Source: an uncultured Chloroflexia bacterium (GTDB lineage: Bacteria; Chloroflexota; Limnocylindria; Limnocylindrales; CSP1-4). Taken from it: DNA of 64,000 nucleotides. Positions 34,263 through 52,615 of the stretch are shown piece after piece; the stretch's first letter is position 1, and the number at the start of each line of letters is the position of its first letter. The notes below the pieces were generated by a model, which ran no database searches, had not been told where the DNA came from, and worked only from the letters and a program-made list of their open reading frames with translations. Where the stretch lies: NCBI GenBank assembly GCA_963794525.1, contig CAWCEC010000003.1, positions 124,003 to 188,002 on the forward strand. The letters are read 5' to 3'. The position numbers were made by a program, and so were the translations under genes.

Positions 34263-37088
34263 GTGCCGACACTGACCCACGAACAGATCCGGACGCTGGC
34301 GCCCGATGCGGCTGCTGCGCGCTCGGGTGAGGCGCTCGCCGATCGTCGTCGATGGGATTCGGCGGGCCGATCCGATGTGGCCGCCTGGGGCCTCTGCAAG
34401 GGCAGCGGCGCCAACCCGTACCAGGTGGCCGTCGACATCGCCGGTCCGGCCTACAAATGCTCGTGCCCATCTCGCAAGATCCCCTGCAAACACGCGCTGG
34501 GCCTGCTGTTCCTCGTCGCCGACGGCGGTGCCCCGACCGCCGATCCGCCTGACTGGGCACAGGCCTGGCTGGACAGCCGGGCCAGTCGGGCTGCCGCCGC
34601 CGCGACCCGGGCAGAACGGCCGACCGAGATCGACCCCGAAGCGCGCGCCAAACGGATCGCGACACGCGAACGGAAGGTCGCGGCTGGGATCGACGAGCTC
34701 GACCGGTGGCTGCGTGACCTGATGCGGCGCGGCCTGGATAGCACCCGGGGGGAGGGCTATCGCTTCTGGGACGCGATGGGCGCCCGGCTCGTGGACGCGC
34801 AGGCGGGCGGACTGGGACGGTCGGTGCGCGGCCTTGGATCCGCCGCCAACTCGGGCGATGCCTGGCCACATCTGCTGCTCGAGGGCGCCGGGCGCCTGCA
34901 TCTCCTTTCGGAGGCGTATCGACGCGCGGATCAACTCCCCGATGACCTCCGGGCAGACGTGCGCGCGCTGGTCGGCTGGAACGTGAAGGAGGATGAGCTC
35001 GACCCCGCCGATGCCGTCGAGGACAGGTGGCTGGTCATCGGGCAGCGCATCGATGACCGCGGCGACATCGTGACCGCCAGGACGTTCCTTCTCGGGCAGA
35101 CGTCGGGACGGATCGCGCTCCACCTCGCCTTTGGCGTCGGGGCCGCGCCGCCGACGCTCCTGGCCATCCCCGGCCAGGCGTTTCGGGCGACCCTGACCTT
35201 CTATCCGTCATCCACGCCGCTGCGGGCTGCCGTCCGACCACCGATCGAACCCGATGGCGACATCACCGGCGTTCCGGGCGCCCTGCCGCTCGCCAAGGTC
35301 GTCGACGAACACGCCGCCCGCCTCGCACGCAACCCGTTCACCGGGTCCTGGCCGGTCGTGATCGGCGAGGTCGTGCCGGTGCTAGTTGGCGATCGGCTGC
35401 TCGTGCGCGATGTCGACGGGACGGCCCTTCCGCTCCTGACCCCCGACGTCGCGCCGCGCCTCTTCGCCGTGTCGGGAGGCCACGCGGTCACCCTCGTTGC
35501 CGAGTGGGACGGCAACTGGCTTCGTCCCCTCGCGGCACACGCCGATGGACACCTCGCGTCCGTCACGACTGACGGGGAGGGCCTCGAAGCGAAGGTCGAC
35601 GACCCCGAATGGTCGGCGCTCGTCTCGGCGGCCCTCCTGGGAACGGAGCGAACCGGAGGGAGCGCCCCGATTCCAGCGACCGTGGCCGGTCTGGTCGCGG
35701 GTGCCGATACGGAGCAGGCGATCCTTGTCGCGGCCGGGTCGATGGCCGTCCGGCGGCGCGCAGGTCGAACCACGACGCTTGACGAGACGCCGAGCCCGCA
35801 ACCGGCCGAACCCGACCCGCGCCCGCAGCTCACGGGCGCGGCCGCAAGATACGTCGCCCTCGCCTTCGACGAACGACCGTCGTTGGCGCCCGAGCTCCTC
35901 GACCTCGTGCGTGCGACCGGTCGTCGCCTGCCTGACGAATGGCTCCCGAACCTCATGATGCTCGCCAGGCGGAGCGACGACGCCGCGGCCTATGTCGAGC
36001 TCGGTGGGACGCGAGCGGCCTGGCTCGCTCGGACCTTTTCGGAGCTTGCCGGGGATGTGTGGTGGGGGACGGGGGAGGACTGGGACGAAGCCTGGGCGGC
36101 AACAGAGACCGGGGCAGCCAAGGCTGCGGTGGTTCGCCGCACTCGTCGGTCGGACCTGCCTCGCGCCCGAGCGGCGCTGGCGACGTGGTGGGCATCGATC
36201 CCTTCTCCCGAGCGGGCGCGTGTGCTCGAAGCGGTCGAAGTGGGCATCGAACCGGCGGACGAACCGTTCCTCACTGATGCACTCACCGATCGACGGGCCG
36301 ACGTGCGCACGACCGCAGCTGGTCTCCTCGTGCTACTCCCGGATTCTGCGCTGACCCGTCGCATCGAGGACGAAGCGAAGCCACTCCTCGCGGCCGGCGG
36401 CCTGGTCCGCAAGAGTCTCAAGGTCACCCTGCCGTCGCCGTCGGAGGAGCTCGCGGCGATGGGGTTCGCCGGCCGACCCGAGGCTGGCTACGGCGAGCGC
36501 GCCTGGCTCCTGCGCTCGCTCCTCGCCCATGTCCGCCCGGGACGATGGAACGAGTGGCTCCGGGTCGATCCGCCGGGCCTCGTCGACCAGGCGTCACGAT
36601 CAGACGAAGCTCGCCCCCTGCTCGAGGGCTGGATCGTGGCAACAGCCCGCTTCGGCGATCCTGCTTGGGCGACGGCCATCCTCAGCAACCCGGCCGTTCC
36701 GAGCAAGGTCTTGACCGACATTGGTCATGTGCTGGACGGTCTGTCGTCGAGGGATCGCGACGCCACGGTGGCCGCCTCCGCCGCTGCCCTGCATCCTCCG
36801 GTGCTCGCAGCGCTCGCCGCGTCGATCCCGGCTCCCTGGCCGACGCCGCTCGCCGACGCGGTGCTCGATGTCGCCGAGCTGGTCGGTCGAGAGCAATTCC
36901 CGGGACCCGGCCTGTACGAGCTCGTACGCGCCGCCGCACTCCGCCTGCAGCCCGACCGAGTGGACGACCTGACCAAGGTTGCGTCATACAAGGACGAGCT
37001 CCGTCCGGCGCTCACCGACGTGGTCGAGACCATCCGTCTTCGCGCCCGCGTCCACGAAGCCTTCGCGTCCGTGACACCGCCAGCCTGA
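34263..37088 (+). CDS. SWIM zinc-finger family protein (large; DUF5691-like C-terminal region)
   Basis: SWIM CxCx(n)CxH signature YKCSCPSRKIPCKHALGLLF near the N-terminus. 941 aa. First gene of the SWIM / MoxR / DUF5682 / VWA operon. Confidence 0.75.
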   Translation: MPTLTHEQIRTLAPDAAAARSGEALADRRRWDSAGRSDVAAWGLCKGSGANPYQVAVDIAGPAYKCSCPSRKIPCKHALGLLFLVADGGAPTADPPDWAQAWLDSRASRAAAAATRAERPTEIDPEARAKRIATRERKVAAGIDELDRWLRDLMRRGLDSTRGEGYRFWDAMGARLVDAQAGGLGRSVRGLGSAANSGDAWPHLLLEGAGRLHLLSEAYRRADQLPDDLRADVRALVGWNVKEDELDPADAVEDRWLVIGQRIDDRGDIVTARTFLLGQTSGRIALHLAFGVGAAPPTLLAIPGQAFRATLTFYPSSTPLRAAVRPPIEPDGDITGVPGALPLAKVVDEHAARLARNPFTGSWPVVIGEVVPVLVGDRLLVRDVDGTALPLLTPDVAPRLFAVSGGHAVTLVAEWDGNWLRPLAAHADGHLASVTTDGEGLEAKVDDPEWSALVSAALLGTERTGGSAPIPATVAGLVAGADTEQAILVAAGSMAVRRRAGRTTTLDETPSPQPAEPDPRPQLTGAAARYVALAFDERPSLAPELLDLVRATGRRLPDEWLPNLMMLARRSDDAAAYVELGGTRAAWLARTFSELAGDVWWGTGEDWDEAWAATETGAAKAAVVRRTRRSDLPRARAALATWWASIPSPERARVLEAVEVGIEPADEPFLTDALTDRRADVRTTAAGLLVLLPDSALTRRIEDEAKPLLAAGGLVRKSLKVTLPSPSEELAAMGFAGRPEAGYGERAWLLRSLLAHVRPGRWNEWLRVDPPGLVDQASRSDEARPLLEGWIVATARFGDPAWATAILSNPAVPSKVLTDIGHVLDGLSSRDRDATVAASAAALHPPVLAALAASIPAPWPTPLADAVLDVAELVGREQFPGPGLYELVRAAALRLQPDRVDDLTKVASYKDELRPALTDVVETIRLRARVHEAFASVTPPA

Positions 37089-38197
37089 TGGGAGACCCGA
37101 TGACCGCGACACCGCCAGCCGTCCTGCGCGCCCACGCCGAGCAGGCCAGGGCCGACGAACTCGAGGCCCTCGCCCGTCTCGACGAGAAGCAGCGCCCGCC
37201 CGGGTGGCGTCTCTCGCCCTGGGCGGTCGTGACGTTCGTCATGGGCGGCAAGCTCAAAGACGGCACCAACGTCACGCCCAAATACATCGGGGACCGACGT
37301 CTGGTGGAGATCGCCGTGGCCACGCTCGCCACGGACCGCGCCTTGCTCCTCCTCGGCGTGCCCGGAACCGCCAAGAGCTGGCTGTCCGAACACCTGGCCG
37401 CCGCGATCAGCGGCGACTCGACGCTGCTCGTGCAGGGGACCGCCGGCACGGGCGAGGAGGCGATCCGCTTCGGCTGGAACTACGCGCGGCTTCTGGCCGA
37501 TGGCCCATCGCGGGCCGCTCTCGTCCCAAGCCCGGTGATGGTCGGCATGGCCGCGGGCAAACAGGTGCGCATCGAGGAGCTGACCAGGATCCCCGCGGAC
37601 GTCCAGGACGCCCTGATCACGATCCTGTCCGAGAAGTCCCTGCCGATCGCTGAGCTCGGCGAGGAGGTCCAGGCGGTCAATGGCTTCAATGTGATCGCCA
37701 CCGCGAACAACCGCGACAGAGGCGTCAACGAGCTCTCGTCCGCGCTACGACGGCGCTTCAACACCGTGGTGCTGCCGCTGCCGGCGTCGGTCGAGCAGGA
37801 GGTCGAGATCGTCCAGCAGCGGGTGGGGGAGATGGGTCGCGCGCTCGATCTCCCTGCCGAGCCGCCGGCGCTCGAGGAGATCCGCCGAATCGTCACGATC
37901 TTCCGCGAGCTTCGCTCGGGTCAGACGGAGGACGGCAAGAACAAGCTCAAGGTCCCGTCGGCGACGCTGTCGACAGCCGAGGCGATCGCGGTCGTCAACC
38001 AGGGTCTCTCGCTGGCGGCGCATTTCGGCGAGGGACGGCTCAAGCCACGCGACGTCGCCGCTGGCCTGACGGGCGCGATCATCCGCGATCCAGTCCAGGA
38101 CGCAGCCGTGTGGCGCGAGTACCTCGAGACCGTGATGAAGGAACGTGACGGCGGCTGGCGCGAGCTGTACAAGGCCTGCCGCGAGGAAGCCGAATAG
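37088..38197 (+). CDS. MoxR-like AAA+ ATPase
   Basis: Walker A GVPGTAKS, Walker B region and arginine finger context (IATANNRD, ALRRRF). The start overlaps the SWIM gene stop (TGATG). Confidence 0.85.
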   Translation: MGDPMTATPPAVLRAHAEQARADELEALARLDEKQRPPGWRLSPWAVVTFVMGGKLKDGTNVTPKYIGDRRLVEIAVATLATDRALLLLGVPGTAKSWLSEHLAAAISGDSTLLVQGTAGTGEEAIRFGWNYARLLADGPSRAALVPSPVMVGMAAGKQVRIEELTRIPADVQDALITILSEKSLPIAELGEEVQAVNGFNVIATANNRDRGVNELSSALRRRFNTVVLPLPASVEQEVEIVQQRVGEMGRALDLPAEPPALEEIRRIVTIFRELRSGQTEDGKNKLKVPSATLSTAEAIAVVNQGLSLAAHFGEGRLKPRDVAAGLTGAIIRDPVQDAAVWREYLETVMKERDGGWRELYKACREEAE

Positions 38198-38213
38198 GCG
38201 CGGCGGCGCAACC

Positions 38214-40502
38214 GTGACCACGATCCTCGGCATCCGCCACCACGGCCCGGGTTCGGCGCGGAGCGTGCTGGCCGAGCTCGAGCGGCTGCAACCGGACGCC
38301 CTGCTCGTCGAGGGACCGTCGGACGCGTCCGGCCTGATCGACCTGATCGCGGATCCGGGGATGCGGCCACCCGTCGCGCTCCTCATCTACGCGCCCGACG
38401 AACCGCGCGTCGCGACGTTCTACCCGATGGCCGAGTTCAGTCCGGAATGGGTGGCCCTGCGCTGGGCGCTGGAGCATGGCATCCCGGCACGGTTCATCGA
38501 TCTCGCCGCTGGCGCCCAGTTCGCCGTTGAGAAGGCCAGGTTCCAGCAACGGATGGCCGAGGCCGCGAAGGCCGCCGAAGCGACCGACGCCGACGACGGC
38601 GGGGCAGGGGAGGGAGAGGACGCCCCCGACACCCCGGACACCCCGGACGCCGAGGAGATCCGCCACGACCCACTCAACGAGCTCGCCCAAGCCGCTGGTG
38701 AGGAGGATGGAGAACGCTTCTGGGATCGCCTCGTCGAGTCGCGACGCGAACCCGGCGACCTGTTCGCCGCCGTCTCCGAAGCGATGACCGCCGTGCGCGA
38801 CGCACTGCCGGAAGGAGAGAGCCTGACCCTCCAGCGCGAGGCCGCGATGCGACGCGGCATCCGGCAAGCCGCCAAGGACGGCTTCGAAAACGTCGCCGTC
38901 GTATGCGGGGCGTGGCACGCGCCCGCCCTCGAGAAGCTGCCGCCCGCCGCCCAGGACGACCGGATCCTCCGCGCCCTGCCCAAGGCCATGAAGACCGCGG
39001 CGGCCTGGGTGCCCTGGACGTTCGACCGGTTGGCCGCCGAGTCGGGCTACGGCGCCGGTGTCGAGTCGCCGGGCTGGTACGCCCACCTGTGGTCGGGTAC
39101 GGAACCGCTCGCCGTCTCGTGGATGGCCAAAGTCGCCGCGCTCTTCCGCGAGGAGGGCCTCGATGCCTCCGCGGCGCACCTGGTCGAAGCCGTCCGCCTC
39201 GCCGAGACCCTCGCCGCGATGCGCGGCCGGGCCGTGCCGTCCCTGTCCGAGCTCAACGAGGCCGTGCGCGCGTGCCTCGCCATGGGTTCCGACCTGCCGC
39301 TCAAGCTCGTGCGCGACCGCCTGATCGTGGGCCAGGTCATGGGCGAGACACCGCCCGACGCCCCGGTGGCACCGCTCGCCGCCGACCTCGAGCAGCTGAC
39401 CCGCCGACTCCGCATGCGGCCGGAGCCCGGTGAGAAGACCATCGACCTGGACCTCCGGTCGGACACCGATCGCGCGCGGAGCCACCTCCTGCATCGACTC
39501 GGGATCCTCGGCGTCCACTGGGGCCATACGCAGGAGGTCCGCGGCAAGAGCGGCACGTTCCACGAGGTCTGGGCGCTCGCCTGGCAGCCCGAGTTCGTGA
39601 TCGACCTGGTCGCGGCCAGCCGCTTCGGCAACACGATCGAGGAAGCGGCGTCGAACTCGTCGATCGAAGCCGCCAACGCCGCCGACGAGCTGCCCGCGCT
39701 GACCTCGCTGATCGAGGCGGTGCTCCTCGCCGAGCTTCCGAAGGCGATCGAGCTCGTCGTCGACCGGATCGGCGATGTGGCGGCGGTCGGTGCGGACGTG
39801 CCCGCCCTCATGGACGCCCTCCCGCCGCTTGCCCGGGTCCTGCGCTACGGCAACGTCCGGGGCACGGACGCGACTGCCGTGTCCACGGTCGTCGACGGGC
39901 TCGTCGCCCGCGTCTGCATCGGGCTCTCGAGCGCGGCCGCCTCGCTCGACGACGATGCGGCCGCGACCTTCGCAAGCCAGATCGACGGGGTCCACGGCGC
40001 CATCGCCCTGCTCGACGATGCCGACGACCGAGCAGCCTGGCGCGAGTCCTTGCTTCGCCTGATCGACCAGGAGGGCCTCCATGGCCTTGTCGCCGGACGG
40101 GCGACCCGCCTCCTCCTCGACGAAGGCGTCATCGACAGCGCCGACGCGGCTCGCCGGATGCGCCTCGCCCTCTCGCCTGGCGCGGATCCGGCCGTCGGCG
40201 CGGGCTGGGTCGAAGGCTTCCTCCGTGACAGCGGCACGATCCTGCTCCACGACCAGGACCTGTTCGACACCATCGACCGCTGGGTCACGGATATGCCCCA
40301 GGACGCCTTCGACAACGTGCTGCCGCTGCTGCGCCGGACGATCGCGACCTTCAGCGTCCCGGAGCGGAGGTCGATCGGTGAGCGGATCCTGGCCGGTCGA
40401 CGCGATCGCGCCGCGGCGGCGTCGGCCGGGATAGACGAGGAACGGGCCGATCTCGTCATGCCGATCCTCGCCCGGATCCTGGGCGTCGAGGAGCGGCGAT
40501 GA
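38214..40502 (+). CDS. DUF5682-family protein (partner of MoxR/VWA; function unknown)
   Basis: GTG start after the AAA stop. About 760 aa with no recognised catalytic motif. Confidence 0.6.
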   Translation: MTTILGIRHHGPGSARSVLAELERLQPDALLVEGPSDASGLIDLIADPGMRPPVALLIYAPDEPRVATFYPMAEFSPEWVALRWALEHGIPARFIDLAAGAQFAVEKARFQQRMAEAAKAAEATDADDGGAGEGEDAPDTPDTPDAEEIRHDPLNELAQAAGEEDGERFWDRLVESRREPGDLFAAVSEAMTAVRDALPEGESLTLQREAAMRRGIRQAAKDGFENVAVVCGAWHAPALEKLPPAAQDDRILRALPKAMKTAAAWVPWTFDRLAAESGYGAGVESPGWYAHLWSGTEPLAVSWMAKVAALFREEGLDASAAHLVEAVRLAETLAAMRGRAVPSLSELNEAVRACLAMGSDLPLKLVRDRLIVGQVMGETPPDAPVAPLAADLEQLTRRLRMRPEPGEKTIDLDLRSDTDRARSHLLHRLGILGVHWGHTQEVRGKSGTFHEVWALAWQPEFVIDLVAASRFGNTIEEAASNSSIEAANAADELPALTSLIEAVLLAELPKAIELVVDRIGDVAAVGADVPALMDALPPLARVLRYGNVRGTDATAVSTVVDGLVARVCIGLSSAAASLDDDAAATFASQIDGVHGAIALLDDADDRAAWRESLLRLIDQEGLHGLVAGRATRLLLDEGVIDSADAARRMRLALSPGADPAVGAGWVEGFLRDSGTILLHDQDLFDTIDRWVTDMPQDAFDNVLPLLRRTIATFSVPERRSIGERILAGRRDRAAAASAGIDEERADLVMPILARILGVEERR

Positions 40503-41647
40503 GCGACGAACGGCTGCGACGCTGGCGCCTGGCGCTCGGCGGTGGGGACGCTGATGGGACCGGCCTCGCCCTGGCGGGGGACGACCTGAAGCGCGACCAG
40601 GCCCTCGAGCGGCTGTACGACGCGGAGCGGACCGCCGGCATGGGCGCATCGTCGCCCCAGGTCGTCCGCTGGCTCGGCGACATCCGGACGTATTTCCCAT
40701 CGTCGGTCGTGTCGGTGATGCAGCAGGACGCGCTCGAGCGGCTGAACCTGCGCCGGATGCTCCTGGAGCCAGAACTGCTGGCGACGATCCAGCCGGACCT
40801 CAACCTCGCCACCGAGCTGATCGCGTTGGGCTCGGTGATGCCCGCCGAGACACGGACCACGGCGCGGGAGATCGTCCGCGAGGTCGTCGAGGACGTCATG
40901 CGCCGGCTGGAGAGCCCGCTGCGCCAGGCCATCAGCGGTGCCCTCAACCGGGCGGCGGTCACCCGACGCCCGCGCCAGCGCGACATCGACTGGGACCGCA
41001 CGATCCGACGGAACCTGCGTCACTACCAGCCGGACCTCAAGACGGTCATCCCCGAGACGTTGCTGGGACACGCCCGTCGATCGAACGCCCTGCGCGACGT
41101 CGTGATCGCGGTCGACCAGTCGGGCTCGATGGCTGCCTCGGTCGTGTACTCGTCTGTGTTCGCCGCCGTCATGGCGTCCATCCGCTCGGTGGAGACGAAG
41201 CTCATCGTCTTCGACACCTCGGTCGTCGACCTGACCGACGTGCTGGACGATCCGGTCGAGGTCCTGTTCTCGACCCAACTCGGCGGCGGCACCGACATCA
41301 ACCGCGCGGTGGGCTACTGCCAGACCCTCGTCGCCCGACCGACGGATACGATCTTCGTGCTCATCAGCGACCTGTTCGAGGGCGGCGTCGAGCGGGAGCT
41401 GATCGCCCGGGTCTCGCAATTGCTGGCCTCGGGCGTGACCGTGATCGTGCTGCTGGCGCTGTCGGACAAGGGCACGCCGTCGTTCGACCACGAGCTCGCG
41501 GCGAAGCTGGCTGCCCTCGGTGCCCCCGCATTCGCCTGCACGCCGGACCACTTCCCGGGTCTCATGGCCGCCGCCATCGAGAAACGCGACGTCGGCCGCT
41601 GGGCAGCAGAGCAGGGGATCGCGCTGGAGCGCCCGAAGGACACGTGA
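40499..41647 (+). CDS. VWA-domain protein (MoxR partner)
   Basis: MIDAS motif VVIAVDQSGSM in a C-terminal VWA fold. Overlaps the DUF5682 gene by 4 bp. Confidence 0.8.
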   Translation: MSDERLRRWRLALGGGDADGTGLALAGDDLKRDQALERLYDAERTAGMGASSPQVVRWLGDIRTYFPSSVVSVMQQDALERLNLRRMLLEPELLATIQPDLNLATELIALGSVMPAETRTTAREIVREVVEDVMRRLESPLRQAISGALNRAAVTRRPRQRDIDWDRTIRRNLRHYQPDLKTVIPETLLGHARRSNALRDVVIAVDQSGSMAASVVYSSVFAAVMASIRSVETKLIVFDTSVVDLTDVLDDPVEVLFSTQLGGGTDINRAVGYCQTLVARPTDTIFVLISDLFEGGVERELIARVSQLLASGVTVIVLLALSDKGTPSFDHELAAKLAALGAPAFACTPDHFPGLMAAAIEKRDVGRWAAEQGIALERPKDT

Positions 41648-41683: not shown

Positions 41684-42331
41684 ATGTCACTCGCGCGCGT
41701 CCAATTCTTCTCGATCTCGCTCGACGGTTTCGGCACCGGCGAAGGTCAGAGCCTTGAGGCACCGTTCGGCCACGCCGGCGAACGGCTGCACGAGTGGATG
41801 TTCGTCACTCGGTGGTGGAGCGACAGGGTCGGCGAGCCGGGCGGCAGCGGCGGCGTCGACGACGCCTTCTTGCGGCTGCACGATCCGGGGATCGGCGCCG
41901 AGATCATGGGTGCCGGGAAGTTCGGCCCACCCGGATGGCACGAAGACCCGGAGTGGAAGGGCTGGTGGGGTCCCAACCCGCCATTCCACACCCCGGTCTT
42001 CGTCCTCACCCACCACCCGCGCCCATCGATCGAGATGGAGGGCGGCACGACGTTCCACTTCATCGACGCTTCGCCCGCCGAAGCGCTCGAGAAGGCCCGT
42101 GAGGCTGCGGGCGGCCAGGACGTACGACTCGGGGGAGGGGCCACCATGATCCGCGAGTTCCTTGCTGCACGGCTCGTCGACCATATGCACGTCGCGGTGG
42201 TCCCGATCCTGCTGGGCCGGGGCGAACGCCTCTGGGACGGACTGGAGGGCCTCGAGAAGGACTACGTGATCGAGGCAACCTCGTCGCCCAGCGGCGTGAC
42301 GCACCTGACGTTCACGCGCGCGGCTGTCTGA
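41684..42331 (+). CDS. dihydrofolate-reductase-family protein (RibD C-terminal domain / YwjB-like)
   Basis: Motifs ISLDGFGTG, GGGATMIREFLAARLVDHMHVAVVPILLG and GRGERLW. A paralog of the N-terminal domain of the frameshifted cyclase fusion. Confidence 0.8.
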   Translation: MSLARVQFFSISLDGFGTGEGQSLEAPFGHAGERLHEWMFVTRWWSDRVGEPGGSGGVDDAFLRLHDPGIGAEIMGAGKFGPPGWHEDPEWKGWWGPNPPFHTPVFVLTHHPRPSIEMEGGTTFHFIDASPAEALEKAREAAGGQDVRLGGGATMIREFLAARLVDHMHVAVVPILLGRGERLWDGLEGLEKDYVIEATSSPSGVTHLTFTRAAV

Positions 42332-42356
42332 AAGGCCTCATCCGATCGGAGGCGGT

Positions 42357-42391
42357 CTCAACAGTCCTCGGCAGCGGCCGGCGGGATCTCG
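42357..42391 (+). repeat. left direct repeat (33/35 identical to 46721-46755): a decayed copy of the 3' end of the lipoprotein gene; left boundary of the kinase-LanC cassette
   Basis: Reverse-complement translation gives ...ADEIPPAAAEDC*, versus the intact lipoprotein C-terminus ...AEIPPAAAEGC*. Weaker similarity extends about 80 nt further. Confidence 0.55.
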
Positions 42392-42504
42392 TCGGCTGAA
42401 TCGACGCGGCTGCCTTCCTAGCCGATTGACATCAGTGTCACGATGAAGGCGTTGCGGTCGCTGTCCAGCGTTCACGGCCCGTCGGCCGAACGAGGGTGTT
42501 GGTC

Positions 42505-43002
42505 ATGAGACAGTTCAGAGTCCGCGATCTGATGATCAACGTGCTGCCCGAGGGCGGGCTGCCGCCGATCTGCAGGGTGGTCACCCTGCTGGACTGCGCA
42601 AACGACACCGAGATGGTGGCTGATTGTGGGATCAGCCTCTGCCGACCTATCAGTCGGTGCGTGCAGGTCACACTCCTGGCGGCCTGCGACGCCGACGGCG
42701 GCTCGAGCTGTGACGCCTGCGTCACCAAGGGCACCGTCACCACGGGCGGATGCAAGCCAGGCACGGGCGGCAAGATCGCCGCCGACGTGGGGCAGTACCT
42801 CGATGAGCTGGCGATCCTCAAGGCGGAGCTCACGGCGACGTTGAGCCGGGTCGAGGCGCGGGAGCGGGTGGTCGAAGAGAGCTTGGGGCCGCAGAGTCTG
42901 GACGAGGTTCAGCAACTCGAAGAGAGGCTCACCGGGGCGCTGGAGGAGTTGCGCGCGCGCCGAACCGAGATCGAGCGGACGACGCCCAAGTCGGCCGAGT
43001 AA
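42505..43002 (+). CDS. Cys-rich small protein with a C-terminal coiled coil (hypothetical)
   Basis: GAGGG 9 nt before the ATG. 10 Cys in residues 23-85 (CRVVTLLDCANDTEMVADCGISLCRPISRCVQVTLLAACDADGGSSCDACVTKGTVTTGGC), then a heptad-like helix. Confidence 0.5.
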   Translation: MRQFRVRDLMINVLPEGGLPPICRVVTLLDCANDTEMVADCGISLCRPISRCVQVTLLAACDADGGSSCDACVTKGTVTTGGCKPGTGGKIAADVGQYLDELAILKAELTATLSRVEARERVVEESLGPQSLDEVQQLEERLTGALEELRARRTEIERTTPKSAE

Positions 43003-43014
43003 TCGGCGCGTCGT

Positions 43015-44226
43015 TTGGCCGCCGGGACCAACGCGCCGCGAGGAGATCCGGACGACCTCCTCGAGGCGACCTATCGCGCTAACCCACGGTACGCGCTCGT
43101 CCAGTTCGACCGTCTTCCGCCCGCCGAACAGGCGGCCCTTTCTGGCCTCGAGCTGGACCCAGACTTCTATGGAGTCCTCGTGTCTCGGGGACAAACAAAC
43201 CAAGGCGTGAAAGCGGTGGGCAGGGATGCAGCCCTGCTGTTTCTCACGTTGGAAACGCCCGGGAAGCTTCCCAGGTATGTGCGGCGCCAGTTCGGGGACA
43301 ACTACCGGCAAGCGATCGCGGAGCTAGTGCTCGACGGCCTTCTCGAGATCGAGGCGGATGGGGCGTTCGTTTCCGGCCCCGCGGCGCATCGACGCATCAT
43401 CGGGGACGGCGAGGCGGCAGCAGGCGGGATCCTCGCCCGCCGGTCGATCGAGGCGCTCGAGTACGCCCAGGCCCTCGAAATCACGGACAGCCGCACGCTC
43501 TCTGCGCGCATCTACGGCTACGGGCGACATCCCTTGTCACCGCAGCTCCATCGGGATTTCCCGACGCCCGCGGCCGTCTCCGAGTATCTGGGTGTCCATG
43601 CGAGGGATGCCACCGGAGCGATTCTGGCCAAGTCGTGGTTCGCGGTACCGTCTTCTCAACCGGGTGATATGTGGCTCGCGTGGAACTCGCGCTCCATACG
43701 CCGCAGGCCGTCGGCGTCCGAGCCCACCTACAAGCTCTACGTCAGCCCACAACCCGAGTCCATGCGAGATGCATTCCAGACGACGGTCCAGGTCATCTCC
43801 AAGATGGCCGCCCCGTCGTTCAAGGTGGGTGGGGATGTGTACGGGCTGCTGCGGCCGGACAAGCTCGTCATCTATTTCGAGAACGTTGACGACCTCCAGC
43901 GAGCATCGAGTGCGCTGACCGACCGCCTCCACGGTTGTCTCCCACATGGCGTTCCGTTCACTGCAGAGATCGCCGGCGATGGCCTGTTGTCGTGGGGGAT
44001 CGACCCCCCACGAGACCTGTCGATGCCGGGGTGGCAACAATCGGGGAGCTGGCGCATCTGGGTCACGAATTGGCTGGCCGTTGCGCTGCTCTCGGCGAAG
44101 GCCGCTGCCACGGACGCGGTCGAGCCGTGGATGTTCGCACTAGATCGTCTTCGATTGGATGGCGTTGACACGACATCATGGATCCCGACGCCGACGATCT
44201 GGCGTGACGCCGTTTCGAGCGGCTAA
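43015..44226 (+). CDS. hypothetical 403-aa protein, candidate partner of the downstream kinase-LanC protein
   Basis: Long ORF with coding GC3 and tight spacing to both neighbours. No confidently recognised domain from sequence alone. Confidence 0.55.
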   Translation: MAAGTNAPRGDPDDLLEATYRANPRYALVQFDRLPPAEQAALSGLELDPDFYGVLVSRGQTNQGVKAVGRDAALLFLTLETPGKLPRYVRRQFGDNYRQAIAELVLDGLLEIEADGAFVSGPAAHRRIIGDGEAAAGGILARRSIEALEYAQALEITDSRTLSARIYGYGRHPLSPQLHRDFPTPAAVSEYLGVHARDATGAILAKSWFAVPSSQPGDMWLAWNSRSIRRRPSASEPTYKLYVSPQPESMRDAFQTTVQVISKMAAPSFKVGGDVYGLLRPDKLVIYFENVDDLQRASSALTDRLHGCLPHGVPFTAEIAGDGLLSWGIDPPRDLSMPGWQQSGSWRIWVTNWLAVALLSAKAAATDAVEPWMFALDRLRLDGVDTTSWIPTPTIWRDAVSSG

Positions 44227-46630
44227 GTTGAACGACCCTGCCATCACTGCGCCGTTGCTCCTGCCGACGGACGTCGTCCTGACGCCGGTTGCCGAGCTAC
44301 CCGAGAGACTCCGAGAGCACTTGGAACACGTGGACGGGGACTACGCGATCGCTCGGCGCCGGTCGAGGGCCCCGACGAGGATCGTCAATTCGCACGCGGC
44401 GAAGCTCCTCGACCAGTTTCGAACGGCGACCACCATCGTCCAGGCCGTCATCAATTTCGGGCTGGCAACCGGCGAGGATCCCGCGGAGGTCCTTGACGCC
44501 TCTTATCCGATGCTCAAGCGCCTGCTGGACTCGAATGTTCTCGTTCCCGCGGAGTCCGACGCAGCTGGCGAGATCATTCAGTCGTACGCCGTTGGCGAAC
44601 GCATCGCCGGGTTCACGGTCCTGCGCTGCCTGCACGTCCTCGAAGACACGGAGCTCTACCAGGTCAGGGGCCCGAACGGTCAAGAGGTCGCGCTCAAGAT
44701 CTCGCGGTCTGATCCCTCGGCCGATCTGCGGCGCATGTTCGGGCGGGAGGCCTCCGTCCTTCGCCACCTGGAGGGCAGCGTCAGCCCCGGATTCCTTCAA
44801 GAGGGCCCATTCGAAGATCGGCTGTTCCTCGCGATGGGGTGGTGCGCCGGGGTGCCGGCGAACACCGTCGCCGCAGAGGTTCGCGAGGTGGGCCGCGGCG
44901 ATGGGCCACGACAACTCCTCGACCTCGGTTGCACGATCCTGGAACAGTACGCCCGTCTCCATGCGCGGAACGTCATCCACTCGGACGTTCACCAGTCGAA
45001 CCTGCTCATCGCCGCCGACGGATCGATCAAGATCATCGACTTCGGCCTGGCGCGCCTGCCTGACGCAAGCGAGCCCTTGGACCACGCTCACCGCGGCGGT
45101 GTCGGCTTCTACTTCGAGCCCGAGTGTGCCTCCGCCTTGCGCGCCGGCCGCCAGCCCCCGGAATCCAGCTTCCTCGGCGAGCAATATGCACTCGCCGCGA
45201 TGCTGTATTTCCAGTTCACAGGCGTGCATCAGCTCGACTACTCGCTCGAGCGGGACGAGATGCTTCGCCAGATCTCCGAAGATCCGATGCTGCCGTTCTC
45301 GAAACGCGGAGTCAGCGCCTGGCCCGATGTCGAGCGGATCCTCGCGAGGGCGCTGAGCAAGGAACCACAGGCGCGCTTTCCCTCCGTTGCCGATTTCGCC
45401 CGGGCGCTCCGCGGCGTCGAGGTCACGGGCGACCAGGGCGTCGCCGCCGGGCGCGGCCGGACTCCGACCAAGGGCATGTCGCCGGCTGCAGAGGATGTCC
45501 TACGTGATGTGCTTGACCGTGTCCAGATTTCCGGTCCGCTGCAGCAGACCGGGCTCGCCAGGCCGACTGCCTCGGTCAACTATGGTGCGGCCGGCATCGC
45601 ATACGCGCTGTACCGCATCGCCCGCGTCCGGGGCGATCCCGCGCTCCTCGCCCTCTCGGACGTCTGGGCGAGCCGGTCGACTCGCGACCTCGACGATGAG
45701 GCCGCGTTCGTCAATACCGACCTTCAGATCGTCCCGGAGGTCGTTGGTGCGATCTCGCCGTACCACACCGCGAGCGGTGTCCATTGCGTCCAGGCACTCA
45801 TCGCTCATGCCATGGGCGATGCGGCCGCCCAGCAGGGAGAGATCGAGCACTTCATCGCGGCATCGGCAGCGCCGTGTCCGGACCTCGACCTTACCTTGGG
45901 CCGGTCGTCCTCGCTGCTGGCCGCGTCGCTGTTGAGGGACACGGCCCCCGACAACGACAAGCTACTTGGGTTCGGCAACGCGCGTTTGGCGGGCATCTGG
46001 GAGGAGGTCGGTGTATTCCCGCCGATCCGAGAATTCGCCGATATCTCCTACCTCGGGATCGCCCACGGATGGGCGGGGATCCTGTACGCGACGATGCGGT
46101 GGGCCGAGGCGTCAGGCATGCCGATGCCCACCTCGCTCCGTGAGCGCCTCGATCAGCTGGCCGAGCTCGCCGAGCACAAGGGCCGTGGCATTCGCTGGCC
46201 GGTGTACACCGAGACTCGATCGCACAAGCTCGAGCCGTACATGGCCGGCTGGTGTCACGGCAGCGCCGGCTACGTCCATCTCTGGATGCTTGCACACCGG
46301 GCGTTCAAGGACGAGAGGTACCTCGGCCTAGCCGAAAGCGCCGCCTGGAACGCGTGGGAGGAGCCCGACGCGAACGGCAGCCTCTGTTGTGGCCTGGCCG
46401 GGCGGGCGTATGCGCTGTTGAACCTCCATCGAGCCACGGGTGGGTCCGAATGGCTAGGCCGTGCCCGCCATCTCGCGAACAAGGCGGCCGGCGGCATCAG
46501 GAGTCGGGACGTGCCGGTGAATAGCCTGTACAAGGGCGAGGTGGGCATCGCTGTCTTGGCCGCCGACCTCTCGAAACCCGAATGGTCTTCGATGCCCTTC
46601 TTCGAAGCTGAGGGCTGGTCGACGACCTAA
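44159..46630 (+). CDS. Ser/Thr protein kinase fused to a C-terminal LanC-like (lanthionine synthetase C-like) cyclase domain
   Basis: Kinase motifs VALKI, HSDVHQSNLLI and IIDFGLAR. LanC motifs GIAHGWAGILYA, GWCHGSAGY and SLCCGLAGRAYAL. Start uncertain: the ATG at 44159 overlaps the upstream gene by 68 nt; alternatives are GTG 44204 and TTG 44228. Confidence 0.8.
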   Translation: MALTRHHGSRRRRSGVTPFRAAKLNDPAITAPLLLPTDVVLTPVAELPERLREHLEHVDGDYAIARRRSRAPTRIVNSHAAKLLDQFRTATTIVQAVINFGLATGEDPAEVLDASYPMLKRLLDSNVLVPAESDAAGEIIQSYAVGERIAGFTVLRCLHVLEDTELYQVRGPNGQEVALKISRSDPSADLRRMFGREASVLRHLEGSVSPGFLQEGPFEDRLFLAMGWCAGVPANTVAAEVREVGRGDGPRQLLDLGCTILEQYARLHARNVIHSDVHQSNLLIAADGSIKIIDFGLARLPDASEPLDHAHRGGVGFYFEPECASALRAGRQPPESSFLGEQYALAAMLYFQFTGVHQLDYSLERDEMLRQISEDPMLPFSKRGVSAWPDVERILARALSKEPQARFPSVADFARALRGVEVTGDQGVAAGRGRTPTKGMSPAAEDVLRDVLDRVQISGPLQQTGLARPTASVNYGAAGIAYALYRIARVRGDPALLALSDVWASRSTRDLDDEAAFVNTDLQIVPEVVGAISPYHTASGVHCVQALIAHAMGDAAAQQGEIEHFIAASAAPCPDLDLTLGRSSSLLAASLLRDTAPDNDKLLGFGNARLAGIWEEVGVFPPIREFADISYLGIAHGWAGILYATMRWAEASGMPMPTSLRERLDQLAELAEHKGRGIRWPVYTETRSHKLEPYMAGWCHGSAGYVHLWMLAHRAFKDERYLGLAESAAWNAWEEPDANGSLCCGLAGRAYALLNLHRATGGSEWLGRARHLANKAAGGIRSRDVPVNSLYKGEVGIAVLAADLSKPEWSSMPFFEAEGWSTT

Positions 46631-46720
46631 GAGGCGCTTCCTCGAGCAGCGCTAGTGCGACCTCGTCGGGATACCAAGATGGGCCTGGTGCGCTCGTGGC
46701 TCCCACAGGTCTCCGACCGC

Positions 46721-46755
46721 CTCAACAGCCCTCGGCGGCGGCCGGCGGGATCTCG
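46721..46755 (+). repeat. right direct repeat, overlapping the stop and last codons of the lipoprotein gene 46722-47423; right boundary of the kinase-LanC cassette
   Basis: CTCAACAGCCCTCGGCGGCGGCCGGCGGGATCTCG versus CTCAACAGTCCTCGGCAGCGGCCGGCGGGATCTCG. Confidence 0.55.
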
Positions 46756-47423
46756 GCGAGTGGATCGCCGATCACGATGCTGATCACGTCGCAGTCGGCG
46801 ATCACGACGGCACGGGCGTCGGCGACCGGCTCGCCGTTGACCTGCGCCGCGACGGGCTTGTCAGGCGCGCAGAGATCGGCGAAGCACGTTCCGTCGAGCT
46901 TGACGCCCCAAGAGTCGGCGAACTGCCCGAGCGTCAGCTCGATCGGTTCCTCCGCCTCGAGGTGGACCGTGCCCGAGCAGTCGTGCGTGTGGAGTCCGGC
47001 GATGCGGTGCCCATCGTTGTCGATGCCGATCCCCGCGGGGACGATCTGGGGTTCGCCGTCGACGAACACGCCCACGTACGTATGCACGTGGTGACTGAGC
47101 CACTCCACCGGGTCGACGGGTACGCCGGCGGTTGCGGCGAGGTCGACCGTATCGTTTGCGACCGGCCATCGCGCATACGCGCATTCCTCGCTGAAGAACT
47201 GGTCGGGCGCCGAGAAGACCCGGCCATCCGCGGTCTTGTATGTGCCGTCCGGCTGCTGGACCGCGTCCGCGAGCTCCGGTGGTAGACCCGCGGCAGTCGA
47301 GGGCGCTGCCTGGCTGGGACTGGGCGGCGTCGAGGCAGTGGTGCCGGTCCCGCACGCGATCGAGCCCAACGCGAGGACGAGTGCGGCGCCGACGACGAGG
47401 ACGCGCGACCGAAGAACCCTCAT
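46722..47423 (-). CDS. lipoprotein with His/Cys-rich motifs (possible metal binding)
   Basis: ATG at 47423 preceded by GGAGGG. Signal and lipobox LVLALGSIACG; motifs HHVHTY and HTHDC. Its last 35 nt are duplicated at 42357-42391. Confidence 0.6.
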   Translation of the reverse strand: MRVLRSRVLVVGAALVLALGSIACGTGTTASTPPSPSQAAPSTAAGLPPELADAVQQPDGTYKTADGRVFSAPDQFFSEECAYARWPVANDTVDLAATAGVPVDPVEWLSHHVHTYVGVFVDGEPQIVPAGIGIDNDGHRIAGLHTHDCSGTVHLEAEEPIELTLGQFADSWGVKLDGTCFADLCAPDKPVAAQVNGEPVADARAVVIADCDVISIVIGDPLAEIPPAAAEGC

Positions 47424-47464: not shown

Positions 47465-48019
47465 TCAGTGCCGGGTTCGGAGCAACTCAAGCAATGCCGT
47501 CGTCGTTTGCCAGCTGCGGATCGTCATCGATCGATAGGCGGGCGTTCCGATGATCTTGCCCAGTCGGCTCTTCGTTCGTTGCGAGCTGAGACGCTGCGAG
47601 TAGATGACACCGTTCACCCGGCCAAACCTGATCGACGCCTTCTCTCGGATCGAAGACTGCGAGTGCTTCTGCAGGATCAAGGTCCATCAGGAAGATGGCA
47701 TCGCTGTGATATCTGCTCGGCTGCTCACCGAAGCGCTTGGGTCGTTCTTGACGACGCCTTCGAGCTGATCGCGAGACATGACCAGCACCTTGATGAGTTC
47801 AGCATCCAGCTTGAAGGCCTTCGGTAATGCCTCCTCGATCTGCGCCTTGATGGCAGCAGGTCGCTTCGCGGATTCCAGGAACACGTTGCCGCTGGCGATA
47901 TAGGTCGAGACCTTCGAATACCCCATGTCTTCCAGGAGGGTCCGCAGGTCCGCCATCGGCACCCGGTTCTTGCCGCCGACATTGATCCCTCGAAGAAGCA
48001 CCAGATAGGGTTGCGTCAT
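47465..48019 (-). pseudogene. DUF1697-family protein, lower-GC paralog with two frameshifts
   Basis: N-terminus MTQPYLVLLRGINVGGKNRVPMADL matches the intact copy at 49306-49866. The middle and C-terminal segments appear in the two other frames (ORFs 47487-47687 and 47465-47680). Confidence 0.6.
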
Positions 48020-48126: not shown

Positions 48127-49230
48127 ATGCGCAGTCCGATCAACTTGCGGATCGCCAGCGTGAGCGTGGGGGCGGTCCTGGCTATGGGGCTCGTCATCAC
48201 GAGCACGGCGGGAGTCGATGCCAAACCACCCAAGCCCACGCCGAAGCCGACGCCGACGGCGACATCGACGCCCACGCCGCCCTCTGTCTCGGCCACGGTC
48301 GAGATCGCCCCGACCGGAACGCTGGAGCCGAGTCGCCAATACAGCAACGTGGATGTGACGGTCACGTGTCCGACAGGCTGGACGTGGGTCCGTGGCGGCC
48401 TCTACGTGCGGCAGGCAGATCCCGGGGGCGCCGGCAGCTTCAGCGCTTCGTGCACAGACTCGCCGCAGATCGTGCGCGTCAGGGTCGTGAACGGGAACAA
48501 ATGGACGCTCGGCAACGCGACCGCACAGGCCTTCGTCACCATCGCGCGGAGCGGCCGTGAAACACAGGTCAGCAGCACGCGCACGATCAGCCTGCAGCCC
48601 GGCGTCACCGCGCGGATCGCGGACCAAGGCCAGCTGACGGGTACCGGAGGCGGCGGCGTGAAGATCGCGGTCGCCGCGGCCTGCCCGACCGGAGCGACGG
48701 GCCAGCCATCGTCCATCTCGGTATCCCAGGGCGGCACGGCGCAAGGCTCCGGGACCTTCACGCCGCTGTGCGATGGCACGTCGCGCACGTTCGTCGTGTC
48801 GATCGGGACGTCCACGGGACCGTTCCACACGGGGAGCGCGACGAGTGCGGCATCCGCCACGGTCGCGTGGAATGGCCAGAGCTTCGACGGGACCGATAGC
48901 CGCGGGATCACGCTGCTCGAGTCCTCGACGGGTGACACGACACCGCCGACCCCACCCAACGGCCTCAGTGCGAACGTCTTCGGAGACGGCGAGACGTGGC
49001 TGTCCTGGGGTGCGTCGACCGACAATGCCACGCCGACAGGCCTGATCGTGTACGAGGTCTTCCTGAACGGTCGATTCGACCAGGGGACCGGCGGCGGCTA
49101 CACCCAGGCGATCCTCTATGCCGATCTCGGAGTCATGAACACGATCGAGGTCGTTGCCGTCGACGGCGCGGGAAACCGGTCAGCGCCAGCATCCGTGACG
49201 GTCGACTGCACCTCCGGTGGCTGCCAGTGA
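48127..49230 (+). CDS. secreted protein with a Pro/Thr-rich linker and a C-terminal fibronectin-III-like domain
   Basis: Signal peptide, a KPPKPTPKPTPTATSTPTPP linker and an FN3-like tail (PPTPPNGLSANVFGDGETWLSWGAST...YEVFLNG). Confidence 0.6.
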   Translation: MRSPINLRIASVSVGAVLAMGLVITSTAGVDAKPPKPTPKPTPTATSTPTPPSVSATVEIAPTGTLEPSRQYSNVDVTVTCPTGWTWVRGGLYVRQADPGGAGSFSASCTDSPQIVRVRVVNGNKWTLGNATAQAFVTIARSGRETQVSSTRTISLQPGVTARIADQGQLTGTGGGGVKIAVAAACPTGATGQPSSISVSQGGTAQGSGTFTPLCDGTSRTFVVSIGTSTGPFHTGSATSAASATVAWNGQSFDGTDSRGITLLESSTGDTTPPTPPNGLSANVFGDGETWLSWGASTDNATPTGLIVYEVFLNGRFDQGTGGGYTQAILYADLGVMNTIEVVAVDGAGNRSAPASVTVDCTSGGCQ

Positions 49231-49305: not shown

Positions 49306-49866
49306 TCAGCCGTCGGTGGCGGACGCCTCCATGCGCTCGAGCAGGGCCAGCGTCGTCGCCCAGCTGCGGATGGTCATCGACTTGTAGGCCGGCGTGCCGA
49401 CGATCTTGCTGAGGCGGCTCCTGGTCCGTTGCGCGCTGAGTCGCTGTGAATAGATCACGCCGGTTCCAGGCCATACCTCGTCAACGCCGGGCCGCGGGTC
49501 GAAGACCTTCATCGCGGTCGGCGCGTCGATCCCCATCAGGAAGACCGCGTCGCTGTGGTACGTCCCCGGTCGATCGCCGAAGCCCTTGGGCCGCTTCTGG
49601 ACGACGGCCCGAAGCTGGGCACGCGTCAGGACGAGGACCGCGATCAGCTCACTGTCGAGCTTGAACGTCTTGGGGAGAGCCGCTTCGAGCTCCCGCCGGA
49701 TCGTTGCTGCAGATCGGTCAGAGCTCAGGATCACGTTACCGCTGGCGATGTATGTGGACACCTTCGTATGGCCGTGGCTCTCGAGGAGCTCGCGCAGGGC
49801 CGCCATCGGGACCTTGTTCCGGCCGCCGACGTTGATGCCGCGCAGGAGCACGAGGTATCTGGTCAT
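49306..49866 (-). CDS. DUF1697-family protein
   Basis: Full-length 186 aa (MTRYLVLLRGINVGGRNKVPMAAL). Confidence 0.8.
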   Translation of the reverse strand: MTRYLVLLRGINVGGRNKVPMAALRELLESHGHTKVSTYIASGNVILSSDRSAATIRRELEAALPKTFKLDSELIAVLVLTRAQLRAVVQKRPKGFGDRPGTYHSDAVFLMGIDAPTAMKVFDPRPGVDEVWPGTGVIYSQRLSAQRTRSRLSKIVGTPAYKSMTIRSWATTLALLERMEASATDG

Positions 49867-50848: not shown

Positions 50849-51076
50849 ATGCCCGATCGATATGGCCGTCTGAGGGTGCTGATCACCGCCGAGGGGATCG
50901 TCGACCTCGTCGACCGAGGCTACGAGGTCCGCATCCGTCGACATCACCCCATCCAAGGGTCCCCGCGTGAACTGATCGCCACGGATGCGTCCGTCGAGCG
51001 GTGGCTCGAGGAAACGTTTGGTGACCTTCCTCAGGAGCCGCCGACGAACGCCTCCCGCAGGACGAAGCCGCGATGA
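50849..51076 (+). CDS. hypothetical small protein, translationally coupled to the M14 peptidase gene
   Basis: Internal ATG chosen to avoid overlap with the divergent gene. Its stop overlaps the M14 start (ATGA). Confidence 0.3.
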   Translation: MPDRYGRLRVLITAEGIVDLVDRGYEVRIRRHHPIQGSPRELIATDASVERWLEETFGDLPQEPPTNASRRTKPR

Positions 51077-52615
51077 CGGCGGTCTACCGGACGGCCGATC
51101 AGATTGACGCCATCATGCTGCACCTGGCGAACCACTTCCCGTTCCTGTGCGAGCGACGGGAACTGCCCCATGGAACAGAAGGGGGTCGCTCGGTCTACGC
51201 GCTCAAAATCGCATCCGGCGGCGGCTCGGGTCGGCGGGCCTTCCTCGCGGTCGGCGGGATGCATGCCCGGGAGTACATGAACCCCGACGCGATCATCGAG
51301 CTCGCCGGCGACCTCGTGCGGGCGTACCTGCTCGGCCACGGCATCACGTACAAGGGCTCGACCGGCACCCAGGGCCGCACCTGGACGGCCCAGGACGTCA
51401 GGCTGATGGTCGAGACGCTCGACATCTGGTTCATCCCGACCGCCAATCCCGATGGCCGGGATTACGCGATGGATCACGACGACATGTGGCGCATGAACCG
51501 CCACGACAACGACAACTCGCCGTGCTTCGGCGTCGACGTCAACCGAAACTTCGATATCGCATGGGCCACCACCACATCGGCGACGTCGTGCACCGTCTGT
51601 GATCCGAAATCAGGTTTACTGCGGCCCTCGCGCCTTCTCCGAGCCGGAAGCTCGCAACGTCCGGACCTTCGTGGAGACGTTCAATATCAACGTCTTCGTG
51701 GACGTGCACTCTTTTAAGGAGTGGATCATGTATCCGTGGGGCCACGCGCCCCTCCAGACCACGGACCCGGCCCAGAACTTCAAGACCCTCGCCTCCGGAA
51801 GCTGCGCCTGGTTGAACCCGCCGAAGTACAAGGAGTACATCCCGTCGGCGGATCTGCGGCGCTACCAGACGGTCGCCCAGAGGGTCGTCAACTCGGTCCG
51901 GATGGTCCGAGGACGAAACTACACGCCGAATCCCATCAACTCGATCTACCCGACGGGCGCCTCGGGGACGAGCTCCGACTACGTCTACAGCCAGCATATG
52001 CGGGACCCGGCACTCCACAAGACCTATGCCTTCGCCTTCGAGTGTGGTCAGAAAACAGGCAACGACCAGGAGGACTTCCACCCTTCGACTGAACCCCGGC
52101 TGGCCGACACCAAGAAGGACACGAAGGCGGCCATCCTGGCCCTCATCGAGCAGACGGTCTGCGCGATCGAGTTCATCGGCGTGTCGCTCTTTGACAACGT
52201 TCGAGATGTCCAGACGATCCGATCGCTGCGGGACACGACGCTCGCGACAACCGATGCCGGCCAGGGCTGGATCGAGCTCTTCGACCGCGTCCAGCGACCG
52301 GTCCTCGCCGCCGTCCTCGAGGACGAGGAGCTGCAGCGGGAGGCGGCCGAGCTCCTCGGGCGAGCAACCGAGCTGATCGATGGCGACTCCAGCAAGCTGA
52401 CCGCCGACGACGTCGCCCGCGCGAAGAGCTTCGTCCGACGCGTGTCCCGGCGCATTGAGGACCCTGAAGTCAAACGCGGCCTGGCCCAGGTCCAGAAGCG
52501 GCTTGCCGCGGCCCAGGGGCGGACAGTCTCCAGGGTCGTGGCGACACTCATGCGTGAGGCGCCGACCATTCCTTCGACCAAACGGAAGCGACGCCCGGCG
52601 AAGTCCGACCGATGA
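51073..52615 (+). pseudogene. M14-family zinc carboxypeptidase with a C-terminal extension; single frameshift near 51600-51615
   Basis: HxxE zinc motif GGMHAREYMNPD and VDVNRNF in frame 1. It continues in another frame from CGPRAFSEPEARNVRTFVETFNINVFVDVHSF. Confidence 0.7.

Follow-up and report, generated by a model that had tools for sequence, protein, structure and literature searches.

Lanthipeptide classes are defined by the way in which dehydration and cyclisation are split among proteins. In class IV, the LanL enzymes, for example VenL and SgbL, combine an OspF-like lyase domain, a Ser/Thr kinase domain with intact residues and a LanC-like cyclase domain with zinc ligands in one polypeptide, and they act on short precursors consisting of an N-terminal leader and a C-terminal core. 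The class III LanKC enzymes contain a cyclase domain which lacks the zinc ligands, while in class VI, known from Streptococcus, LanKCb is one polypeptide in which both the lyase and the cyclase domain are truncated and which makes one four-residue ring. In class V, known from lexapeptide and cacaoidin, the activities are distributed over a free APH-family kinase (LanK), a stand-alone HopA1-like lyase (LanY) and the cyclase LanX. Enzymes of classes II-IV are regarded as independent of the recognition element (RRE) of pathways for peptides that are synthesized on ribosomes and modified after translation (RiPPs) (PMC10604976; RRE-Finder preprint). The eukaryotic proteins LanCL1 and LanCL2, together with OspF/SpvC-type lyases, follow the same logic, in which phosphorylation and elimination precede the addition of a thiol. 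The system described here is a cassette of three genes, designated A, B and C, located at positions 42505-46630 of a stretch of 64,000 nucleotides (the window) from an uncultured Chloroflexia bacterium (GenBank assembly GCA_963794525.1, contig CAWCEC010000003.1, positions 124,003 to 188,002 of the forward strand).

For this cassette, it is likely that the kinase part of C, the lyase B and the zinc cyclase part of C act one after the other to install (methyl)lanthionine thioethers on the product of A. All the domains that this would require are there in intact form, are inherited together and are accompanied by a suitable substrate. Whether the cassette stands for an undescribed and widespread lanthipeptide-type class appears to us evenly balanced. 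The marks of such a class would be the fusion of an RRE, a kinase and LanC, the separate HopA1-like lyase and unusually long precursors with a leader motif and a follower helix. Its products would be polycyclic thioether peptides or proteins, built like ladders with up to about 30 rings, and its hosts mostly uncultured soil phyla (Acidobacteriota, Chloroflexota, Eremiobacterota, Gemmatimonadota and others). By the conventions of the field, the cassette would probably rank as a lanthipeptide class of its own. Full-text literature searches, whose coverage did not include a 2015 survey of lanthipeptide-like clusters in Actinobacteria, gave no published description of this architecture. The following features were assigned in the window:

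42505-43002, plus strand: gene A, putative substrate or precursor of 165 amino acids
42505-42546, plus strand: N-terminal recognition-like motif of A, amino acids 1-14, MRQFRVRDLMINVL
42571-42753, plus strand: Cys/Thr/Ser/Gly-rich hypervariable core of A, amino acids 23-83
42808-42999, plus strand: conserved C-terminal helical region of A, amino acids 102-165, with the first helix LAILKAELTATLSRVE
43015-44226, plus strand: gene B, predicted stand-alone phospho-Ser/Thr lyase of 403 amino acids (HopA1/LanY-like fold) with an extra N-terminal domain
43732-43875, plus strand: candidate lyase active-site residues of B (K240, Y242, K270, R280 and Y287)
44228-46630, plus strand: gene C, RRE-kinase-LanC fusion of 800 amino acids
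44228-44545, plus strand: predicted N-terminal RRE of C, PqqD-like, with three strands and three helices
44567-45448, plus strand: Ser/Thr protein kinase domain of C
45578-46603, plus strand: LanC-like zinc cyclase domain of C

The three co-directional open reading frames (ORFs) had been recognized in a preliminary description of this DNA, made from the sequence alone, and the kinase-LanC fusion proposed there for C was borne out by matches to Pkinase (Pfam, E 3.8e-12, residues 172-368 in the numbering of an 823-residue ORF) and to LANC_like (Pfam, E 2.7e-28, residues 474-815). The real start of C is almost certainly not that of the mechanical ORF of 823 amino acids (44159-46630) but the TTG at position 44228, one base after the TAA of B (TAAgTTG). 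This assignment follows from a database protein with 100 % identity to C (P0145), which comprises 800 amino acids, from a gene call made independently on a Logan contig, where C begins two bases after the end of B, and from the homologues of C, which align only from about residue 28 of the 823-residue ORF. The arrangement of stop and start codon suggests translational coupling of B and C.

In the LanC domain, the motifs GxAHGxAG, WCHG and LCCG reported earlier were found as GIAHGWAG (residues 633-640), GWCHG (697-701) and LCCG (742-745), and the match covers profile positions 8-348 of 350, which corresponds to the full length. The zinc ligands had been described as at least partly retained, and an alignment had been proposed as a check. 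In the alignment of 56 full-length homologues they proved to be fully retained, with Cys699 (GWCxG) and Cys743-Cys744 (LCCG) invariant, together with the active-site acid His636 (AHGWAG). In contrast to class III LanKC, all three ligand positions are thus invariant Cys residues in the C family, and in contrast to LanL, the zinc site is of the Cys-Cys-Cys and not of the Cys-Cys-His type; we take it to be a ProcM-type variant. The full-length domain also sets C apart from the class VI LanKCb protein, and the lyase B is here separate and full-size. Among proteins of solved structure, LanCL2 (E 2e-19) and LanCL1 (E 7e-16) are nearest to the LanC domain in sequence.

The kinase domain of C gave PknB-type matches in the PDB, and K180, E197, H274-x-D276-x-H278-x-x-N281, D294-F-G296 and E320-P-E322 are invariant in the same 56 homologues. 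Unlike the free APH-family LanK of class V, this kinase is a Hanks-type Pkinase fused to LanC, and the cyclase is a zinc-dependent LanC instead of LanX. As a separate observation, the catalytic loop (window positions 44978-45001, residues 274-281) reads H-x-D-x-H-P-R-N in nearly all homologues and H-S-D-V-H-Q-S-N in the window. It is presumably nearer to the Brenner motif of APH and choline kinases than to the HRDLKxxN of Hanks kinases, which hints at a link to the APH-type kinases of class V.

Among the NCBIfam models, LanL is the best for C (E 7.7e-48, 163 bits with a cut-off of 650), well ahead of LanKC (E 8e-21, 74 bits), and the same kinase-lyase-cyclase chemistry is predicted. The LanL model is matched only at positions 230-802 of 851, that is over the kinase and cyclase parts, which shows that a lyase part is missing from C, as had been stated before. 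The longest C homologue among 120 matches listed has at most 861 amino acids. Unlike in class IV, an OspF-like lyase domain is not part of the C polypeptide, and an RRE is predicted at the N-terminus instead. It had been noted that only about 110 amino acids precede the kinase; this length is about right (roughly 115-140 residues), but the region is not empty, since in the structure prediction the N-terminal 105 amino acids of C fold as an RRE. A PqqD-like element of three strands and three helices is also present in the maturation proteins of RRE-dependent RiPP pathways, and in C it would bind the leader of the substrate. Since the enzymes of classes II-IV are regarded as RRE-independent, the RRE of C represents a real architectural difference.

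Gene B starts with a TTG, 13 nucleotides after the stop codon of A. In the preliminary description, its product was a protein without an obvious family, considered as a possible split lyase. Scans against Pfam and NCBIfam indeed gave no match at E<=1, and the assignment came from the fold. For an AlphaFold model of B, built on 42 homologues (predicted local distance difference test 86, predicted template modelling score 0.86), all 25 Foldseek matches at E<=0.004 were phospho-Ser/Thr lyases, and by its predicted fold B is a split-off phospho-Ser/Thr lyase. Sub-threshold family echoes to HopA1 (4 of the 42 homologues, best E 0.0056) and RamC_N (3 of 42) were also identified. A match of B to a GGDEF domain in a profile search against the PDB (E 0.12, segment LRPDKLVxYF) was rejected as spurious, the fold searches having led uniformly to lyases.

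By mutagenesis, the catalytic residues Lys104, His106, Lys136, Arg148 and Tyr158 were identified for SpvC, and Arg187, Lys219, Arg229 and Tyr236 for CaoY (PMC9486802; PMC10604976). The five candidate active-site residues of B are invariant in the 42 homologues, and the spacing of K270, R280 and Y287 (10 and 7 residues) is identical to that of K219, R229 and Y236 in CaoY. The pair K240-x-Y242 is located 30 residues upstream of K270, the equivalent distance in SpvC and CaoY being 32, and judged by this spacing it would correspond to K104-x-H106 of SpvC. Unlike CaoY, B has a Lys at the position of Arg187. B resembles the class V LanY proteins in being a stand-alone HopA1-like lyase, but differs from them by an additional N-terminal region of about 180 amino acids (window positions 43015-43560), which is not needed for the lyase fold, and in that Pfam HopA1 is reached only below threshold. 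By eye, the N-terminus of B, 'LVLFDRLPPEQQ...FYGIL.PR...KSV.RDTALL', resembles the RRE of C, 'LVPV.ELP..VR.Q...YAITRPRSRTPSRIVD..AAELL'; a profile-profile comparison of the two regions was not significant (E 0.03, probability 1.7 %).

Genes similar to B are widespread. More than 1,395 word-sharing homologues, with roughly 45-60 % identity, were identified across phyla, every one of them named "hypothetical protein". In an exhaustive profile search, the family comprised 1,575 clusters at 50 % identity, 1,090 of them at E<=1e-30 and nearly all with a length of 380-425 amino acids; it is large and under purifying selection. A scan of a one-genome-per-species collection with the B alignment revealed 325 related loci, and a scan of the genome collection with protein C alone gave no loci. 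Of these 325 loci, 80 were examined together with four from metagenome contigs, resulting in a set of 84. They are found mainly in Acidobacteriota (Terriglobia, Bryobacterales, Thermoanaerobaculia and Vicinamibacteria); the other carriers are Chloroflexota, Eremiobacterota, Armatimonadota, Gemmatimonadota, Planctomycetota, Actinomycetota and one Bacillus. A C homologue is located 3' of B on the same strand in all 83 loci with downstream DNA, and an A-type gene lies just 5' of B in at least 71 of the 84. The C homologues have about 780-860 amino acids and are labelled "protein kinase" or "lanthionine synthetase LanC family protein"; one of them is from the cultured Edaphobacter paludis. Since the arrangement is conserved across phyla, it is not a matter of chance.

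For the product of A, the size, the stretch rich in Cys, Ser and Thr and the coiled-coil character of the tail agree with the preliminary description, the number of Cys residues being nine and not ten. All nine are located between residues 23 and 83, together with seven Thr and four Ser, and the C-terminal 64 or so amino acids gave weak matches to coiled-coil-type Pfam families only (K-box and Spectrin). The protein begins with MRQFRVRDLMI, and the same Met start is present in all close homologues. The GC content at the three codon positions is 65, 49 and 87 % (68 % for the window overall, range 66-72 %), a pattern which is typical for coding DNA in a high-GC window. Loss of synteny among the three genes, loss of the LanC catalytic residues and a non-coding nature of the Cys-rich ORF had been named beforehand as possible objections; each was checked and none was borne out, and the ORF proved to be conserved beside kinase-LanC genes, in synteny with them, in many phyla.

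Judged by its sequence, A has the anatomy of a RiPP precursor, with conserved flanks and a hypervariable core. The A-type proteins have a length of 60-282 amino acids (median 161) with the core in mid-chain and conserved flanks on both sides, unlike the class IV precursors. Among 42 non-redundant precursors, the N-terminal motif has the consensus F-K-V-K-D-L-M-I, with F at 100 %, [KR], [VI], [KR], [DE] at 97 %, L at 100 %, M at 88 % and [IV] at 92 %, and the helix following the core is described by L-x-x-L-K(92 %)-x-Q(88 %)-L(100 %)-x-x-A-L-x-x-V-E. The mean pairwise identity in this set is 0.58 for the N-terminal flank and 0.50 for the C-terminal helix, compared to 0.22 for the core.

The cores of 61 precursors were delimited by motif anchoring. 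They have a median length of 92 amino acids and contain 2-33 Cys each, with a pooled composition of 13.2 % Cys, 11.6 % Thr, 11.5 % Gly, 6.6 % Ser and less than 1 % Lys. Ser and Thr together equal or exceed Cys in all 61 cores, and the Cys fraction correlates with the Ser plus Thr fraction (r = 0.57, P = 8e-6). Ser/Thr residues are over-represented at positions +1 (z = 14.7) and +4 (z = 17.9) from the core Cys, which results from arrays such as CTxxCTxxCT and CTGCSNCTGC, CYASGGG repeats and CTPSPP repeats. Of 643 successive Cys pairs, 121 are 3 apart, as in a CxxC-type spacing. In the lineage of the window's A, the Cys and several Thr positions are conserved among relatives, and in one close relative (P0127) the core module DCDACVTKGTVTTGGCxPGTG is internally duplicated. 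Tandem precursor genes were identified in three loci (L010, 2366-3178 and 3213-4061; L016, 3806-4156 and 4359-4841; L034, 1-429 and 430-1146).

Short forms of the precursor, with 60-110 amino acids, are present in Thermoanaerobaculia (L029:4619-4951, L033:4676-4948, L040:4664-4948, L071:4708-4968 and L083:4737-4952). Here, a core with repeats of the type C-T-P-S-P-P is followed by a single C-terminal helix of about 16 amino acids, ALASLRQQLRETLAQA. Of the C-terminal helices, these forms have retained the first one alone, so that the second is dispensable. This argues that the retained helix is a docking element and not a structural stalk.

From these data, the following order of events is proposed. 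The RRE of C would capture the conserved strand-like N-terminal motif of A (F-K-V-K-D-L-M-I), and the amphipathic C-terminal helix of A might provide a second docking point, either on the N-terminal domain of B or on the kinase domain. The kinase domain of C, with its intact catalytic residues, would then phosphorylate Ser and Thr residues of the core. B, probably in complex with C, is expected from its fold and its invariant Lys/Lys/Arg/Tyr residues to eliminate the phosphate, giving dehydroalanine and dehydrobutyrine. Finally, the LanC domain, with the Zn(Cys)3 site and the catalytic His, would add the core Cys to the dehydro residues, resulting in many small (methyl)lanthionine rings. Roughly nine such rings would be possible for the product of the window, and as many as about 30 for relatives.

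The domain identities, the conservation of catalytic residues, the synteny and the precursor anatomy are directly supported. Several points weigh against the proposed thioether cassette, among them that the case for it is drawn from sequence and predicted structure. About 11 loci with upstream DNA show no recognisable precursor in a search by sequence patterns, a profile search of B against PDB sequences finds no solved lyase, and B has a Tyr where SpvC has the catalytic acid His106, the mapping being by spacing alone. In addition, the precursors are very long for a RiPP, their conserved helical tail of 55-80 amino acids could equally be a functional part of the mature protein, and in a clustering of the ORFs from the 84 loci no protease, transporter or immunity gene was conserved beside the cassette, which is unusual for a secreted antimicrobial peptide. 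The length, the tail and the missing protease and exporter would all be accommodated if the same chemistry took place and A stayed intact, as a thioether-stapled, protease-resistant Cys/Thr-rich domain on a coiled-coil stalk with a structural, surface-active or stress-related role in the cell or at the envelope. The coiled-coil character of the long tail and its pairwise identity of 50 % across phyla are in line with this possibility, as is the fact that the nearest solved LanC relatives, LanCL1 and LanCL2, are protein-modifying. However, class III and IV lanthipeptide clusters often lack a dedicated protease as well. Hypervariability of the core, tandem copies of the precursor and duplication of internal modules are hallmarks of RiPPs, and an RRE is characteristic of peptide maturation guided by a leader. 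Moreover, the single helix after the core in the Thermoanaerobaculia forms looks like a recognition helix rather than a stalk. We consider an intact protein a serious alternative, if a distinctly less probable one. The evidence leans towards a ribosomal peptide natural product, from which the flanks would be cut off by unlinked proteases as in class III.

The two remaining explanations differ from the proposed one in the chemistry itself. The preliminary description had left open lanthionine-like or glutathione-type crosslinks, and C might act as a LanCL-like thiol transferase, with dehydroamino acids on A or on other phosphoproteins, for example adjoining sensor kinases, being capped by glutathione, mycothiol or bacillithiol. 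The matches to LanCL2 and LanCL1 as the best PDB hits of the LanC domain fit this function, as does a sensor-type Hanks kinase adjoining the cassette in about 33 of the 84 loci, and HopA1, OspF and SpvC are known to act on kinases (PMC9486802). The LanCL proteins stand alone and use glutathione, whereas here the thiols would come most simply from the substrate itself, whose gene encodes 2-33 Cys balanced by Ser/Thr. In LanCL1, glutathione is bound by Arg364, Asp367, Glu374, Lys317 and His323 (PMC9934072), but the equivalent columns in the 56 C homologues are variable or occupied by Lys792 and Cys744. Furthermore, no neighbouring kinase is present in the window, and the extra kinases elsewhere are heterogeneous in architecture and very common in these phyla. 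A thiol transferase is therefore very improbable, and of the two types of crosslink the lanthionine branch is favoured and the glutathione branch is not supported. Without any thioether formation, A could be a metallothionein-like or redox-active Cys-rich protein whose state is set by phosphorylation, B and C being signalling or regulatory partners. The frequent CxxC-type spacing and the abundance of Cys and Gly in the cores, along with their scarcity of Lys, would be expected for such a protein, but a strictly co-inherited phospho-Ser/Thr lyase, an intact LanC active site and the RRE would be left unexplained. Metallothioneins also need no Cys-matched Ser/Thr, yet these residues are enriched beside Cys and scale with it. 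This last explanation is the least probable of all.

The surroundings of the cassette are variable. In the clustering of ORFs, only A, B, C, high-GC antisense artefacts and heterogeneous extra kinases recur. The extra kinases are canonical Hanks Ser/Thr kinases and, with examples at L003:2327-5074 (minus strand), L011:1692-4301, L033:1101-4580, L071:8559-11144, L082:44-4279 and L028:4000-6264, have a sensor-like C-terminus consisting of a PD40 beta-propeller, TPR repeats or a STAND/NACHT NTPase. Their position beside the cassette may be a coincidence in kinase-rich phyla, or may reflect a regulatory or substrate link. A known defence system found no support, since the PADLOC matches were confined to the generic kinase domain (PD-T4-6, mad6), with nothing in A or B. 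A scan for promoters and terminators in window positions 42200-46900 gave no sites.

In the window, the neighbouring genes are unrelated to the cassette and include the group MoxR-DUF5682-VWA, RibD_C, DUF1697 and an M14 peptidase. Upstream, at 36545-41647, an overlapping three-gene unit codes for a MoxR-type AAA_5 ATPase, a DUF5682 protein (785 amino acids, E 4e-262) and a CoxE-like VWA protein; this unit is not conserved beside the cassette elsewhere. Downstream, two DUF1697 paralogues are located 1.3 kb apart on the minus strand, a truncated one of 110 amino acids (47687-48019) and one of 186 amino acids (49306-49866). Between them, at 48127-49230, lies an ORF of 367 amino acids, rich in Thr, Gly and Ser and without a family match. 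A zinc carboxypeptidase (Peptidase_M14) is split into the overlapping ORFs 51073-51717 and 51599-52615, which cover profile positions 2-144 and 148-265; this is probably due to a frameshift, a pseudogene or a sequencing error.

While the chemistry is familiar, what stands out is the architecture, the giant precursors with two flanks, the wide spread among uncultured soil phyla and the fact that current annotation does not reveal the cassette. It escapes present tools in several ways: B belongs to no Pfam or NCBIfam family, the precursors are longer than RiPP precursor finders expect, and C is labelled merely as a protein kinase or LanC family protein, despite 325 loci and more than 1,000 sequence clusters. 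A new arrangement of dehydration and cyclisation alters what genome-mining rules can find, and here the carriers are concentrated in soil phyla poorly explored for natural products. The cassette brings together features of class I, class IV and class V, namely an RRE, a zinc-dependent LanC domain and a HopA1-type lyase as a free protein, which bears on the evolution of these enzymes, and the kinase-linked LanC domains are the nearest sequence relatives of the human LanCL proteins. The prediction can be tested directly, since two carriers, Edaphobacter paludis and Bacillus pfraonensis, are in culture. If it is true, C-T-x-x-C-T arrays repeated more than 10 times would give an unusually dense thioether scaffold.

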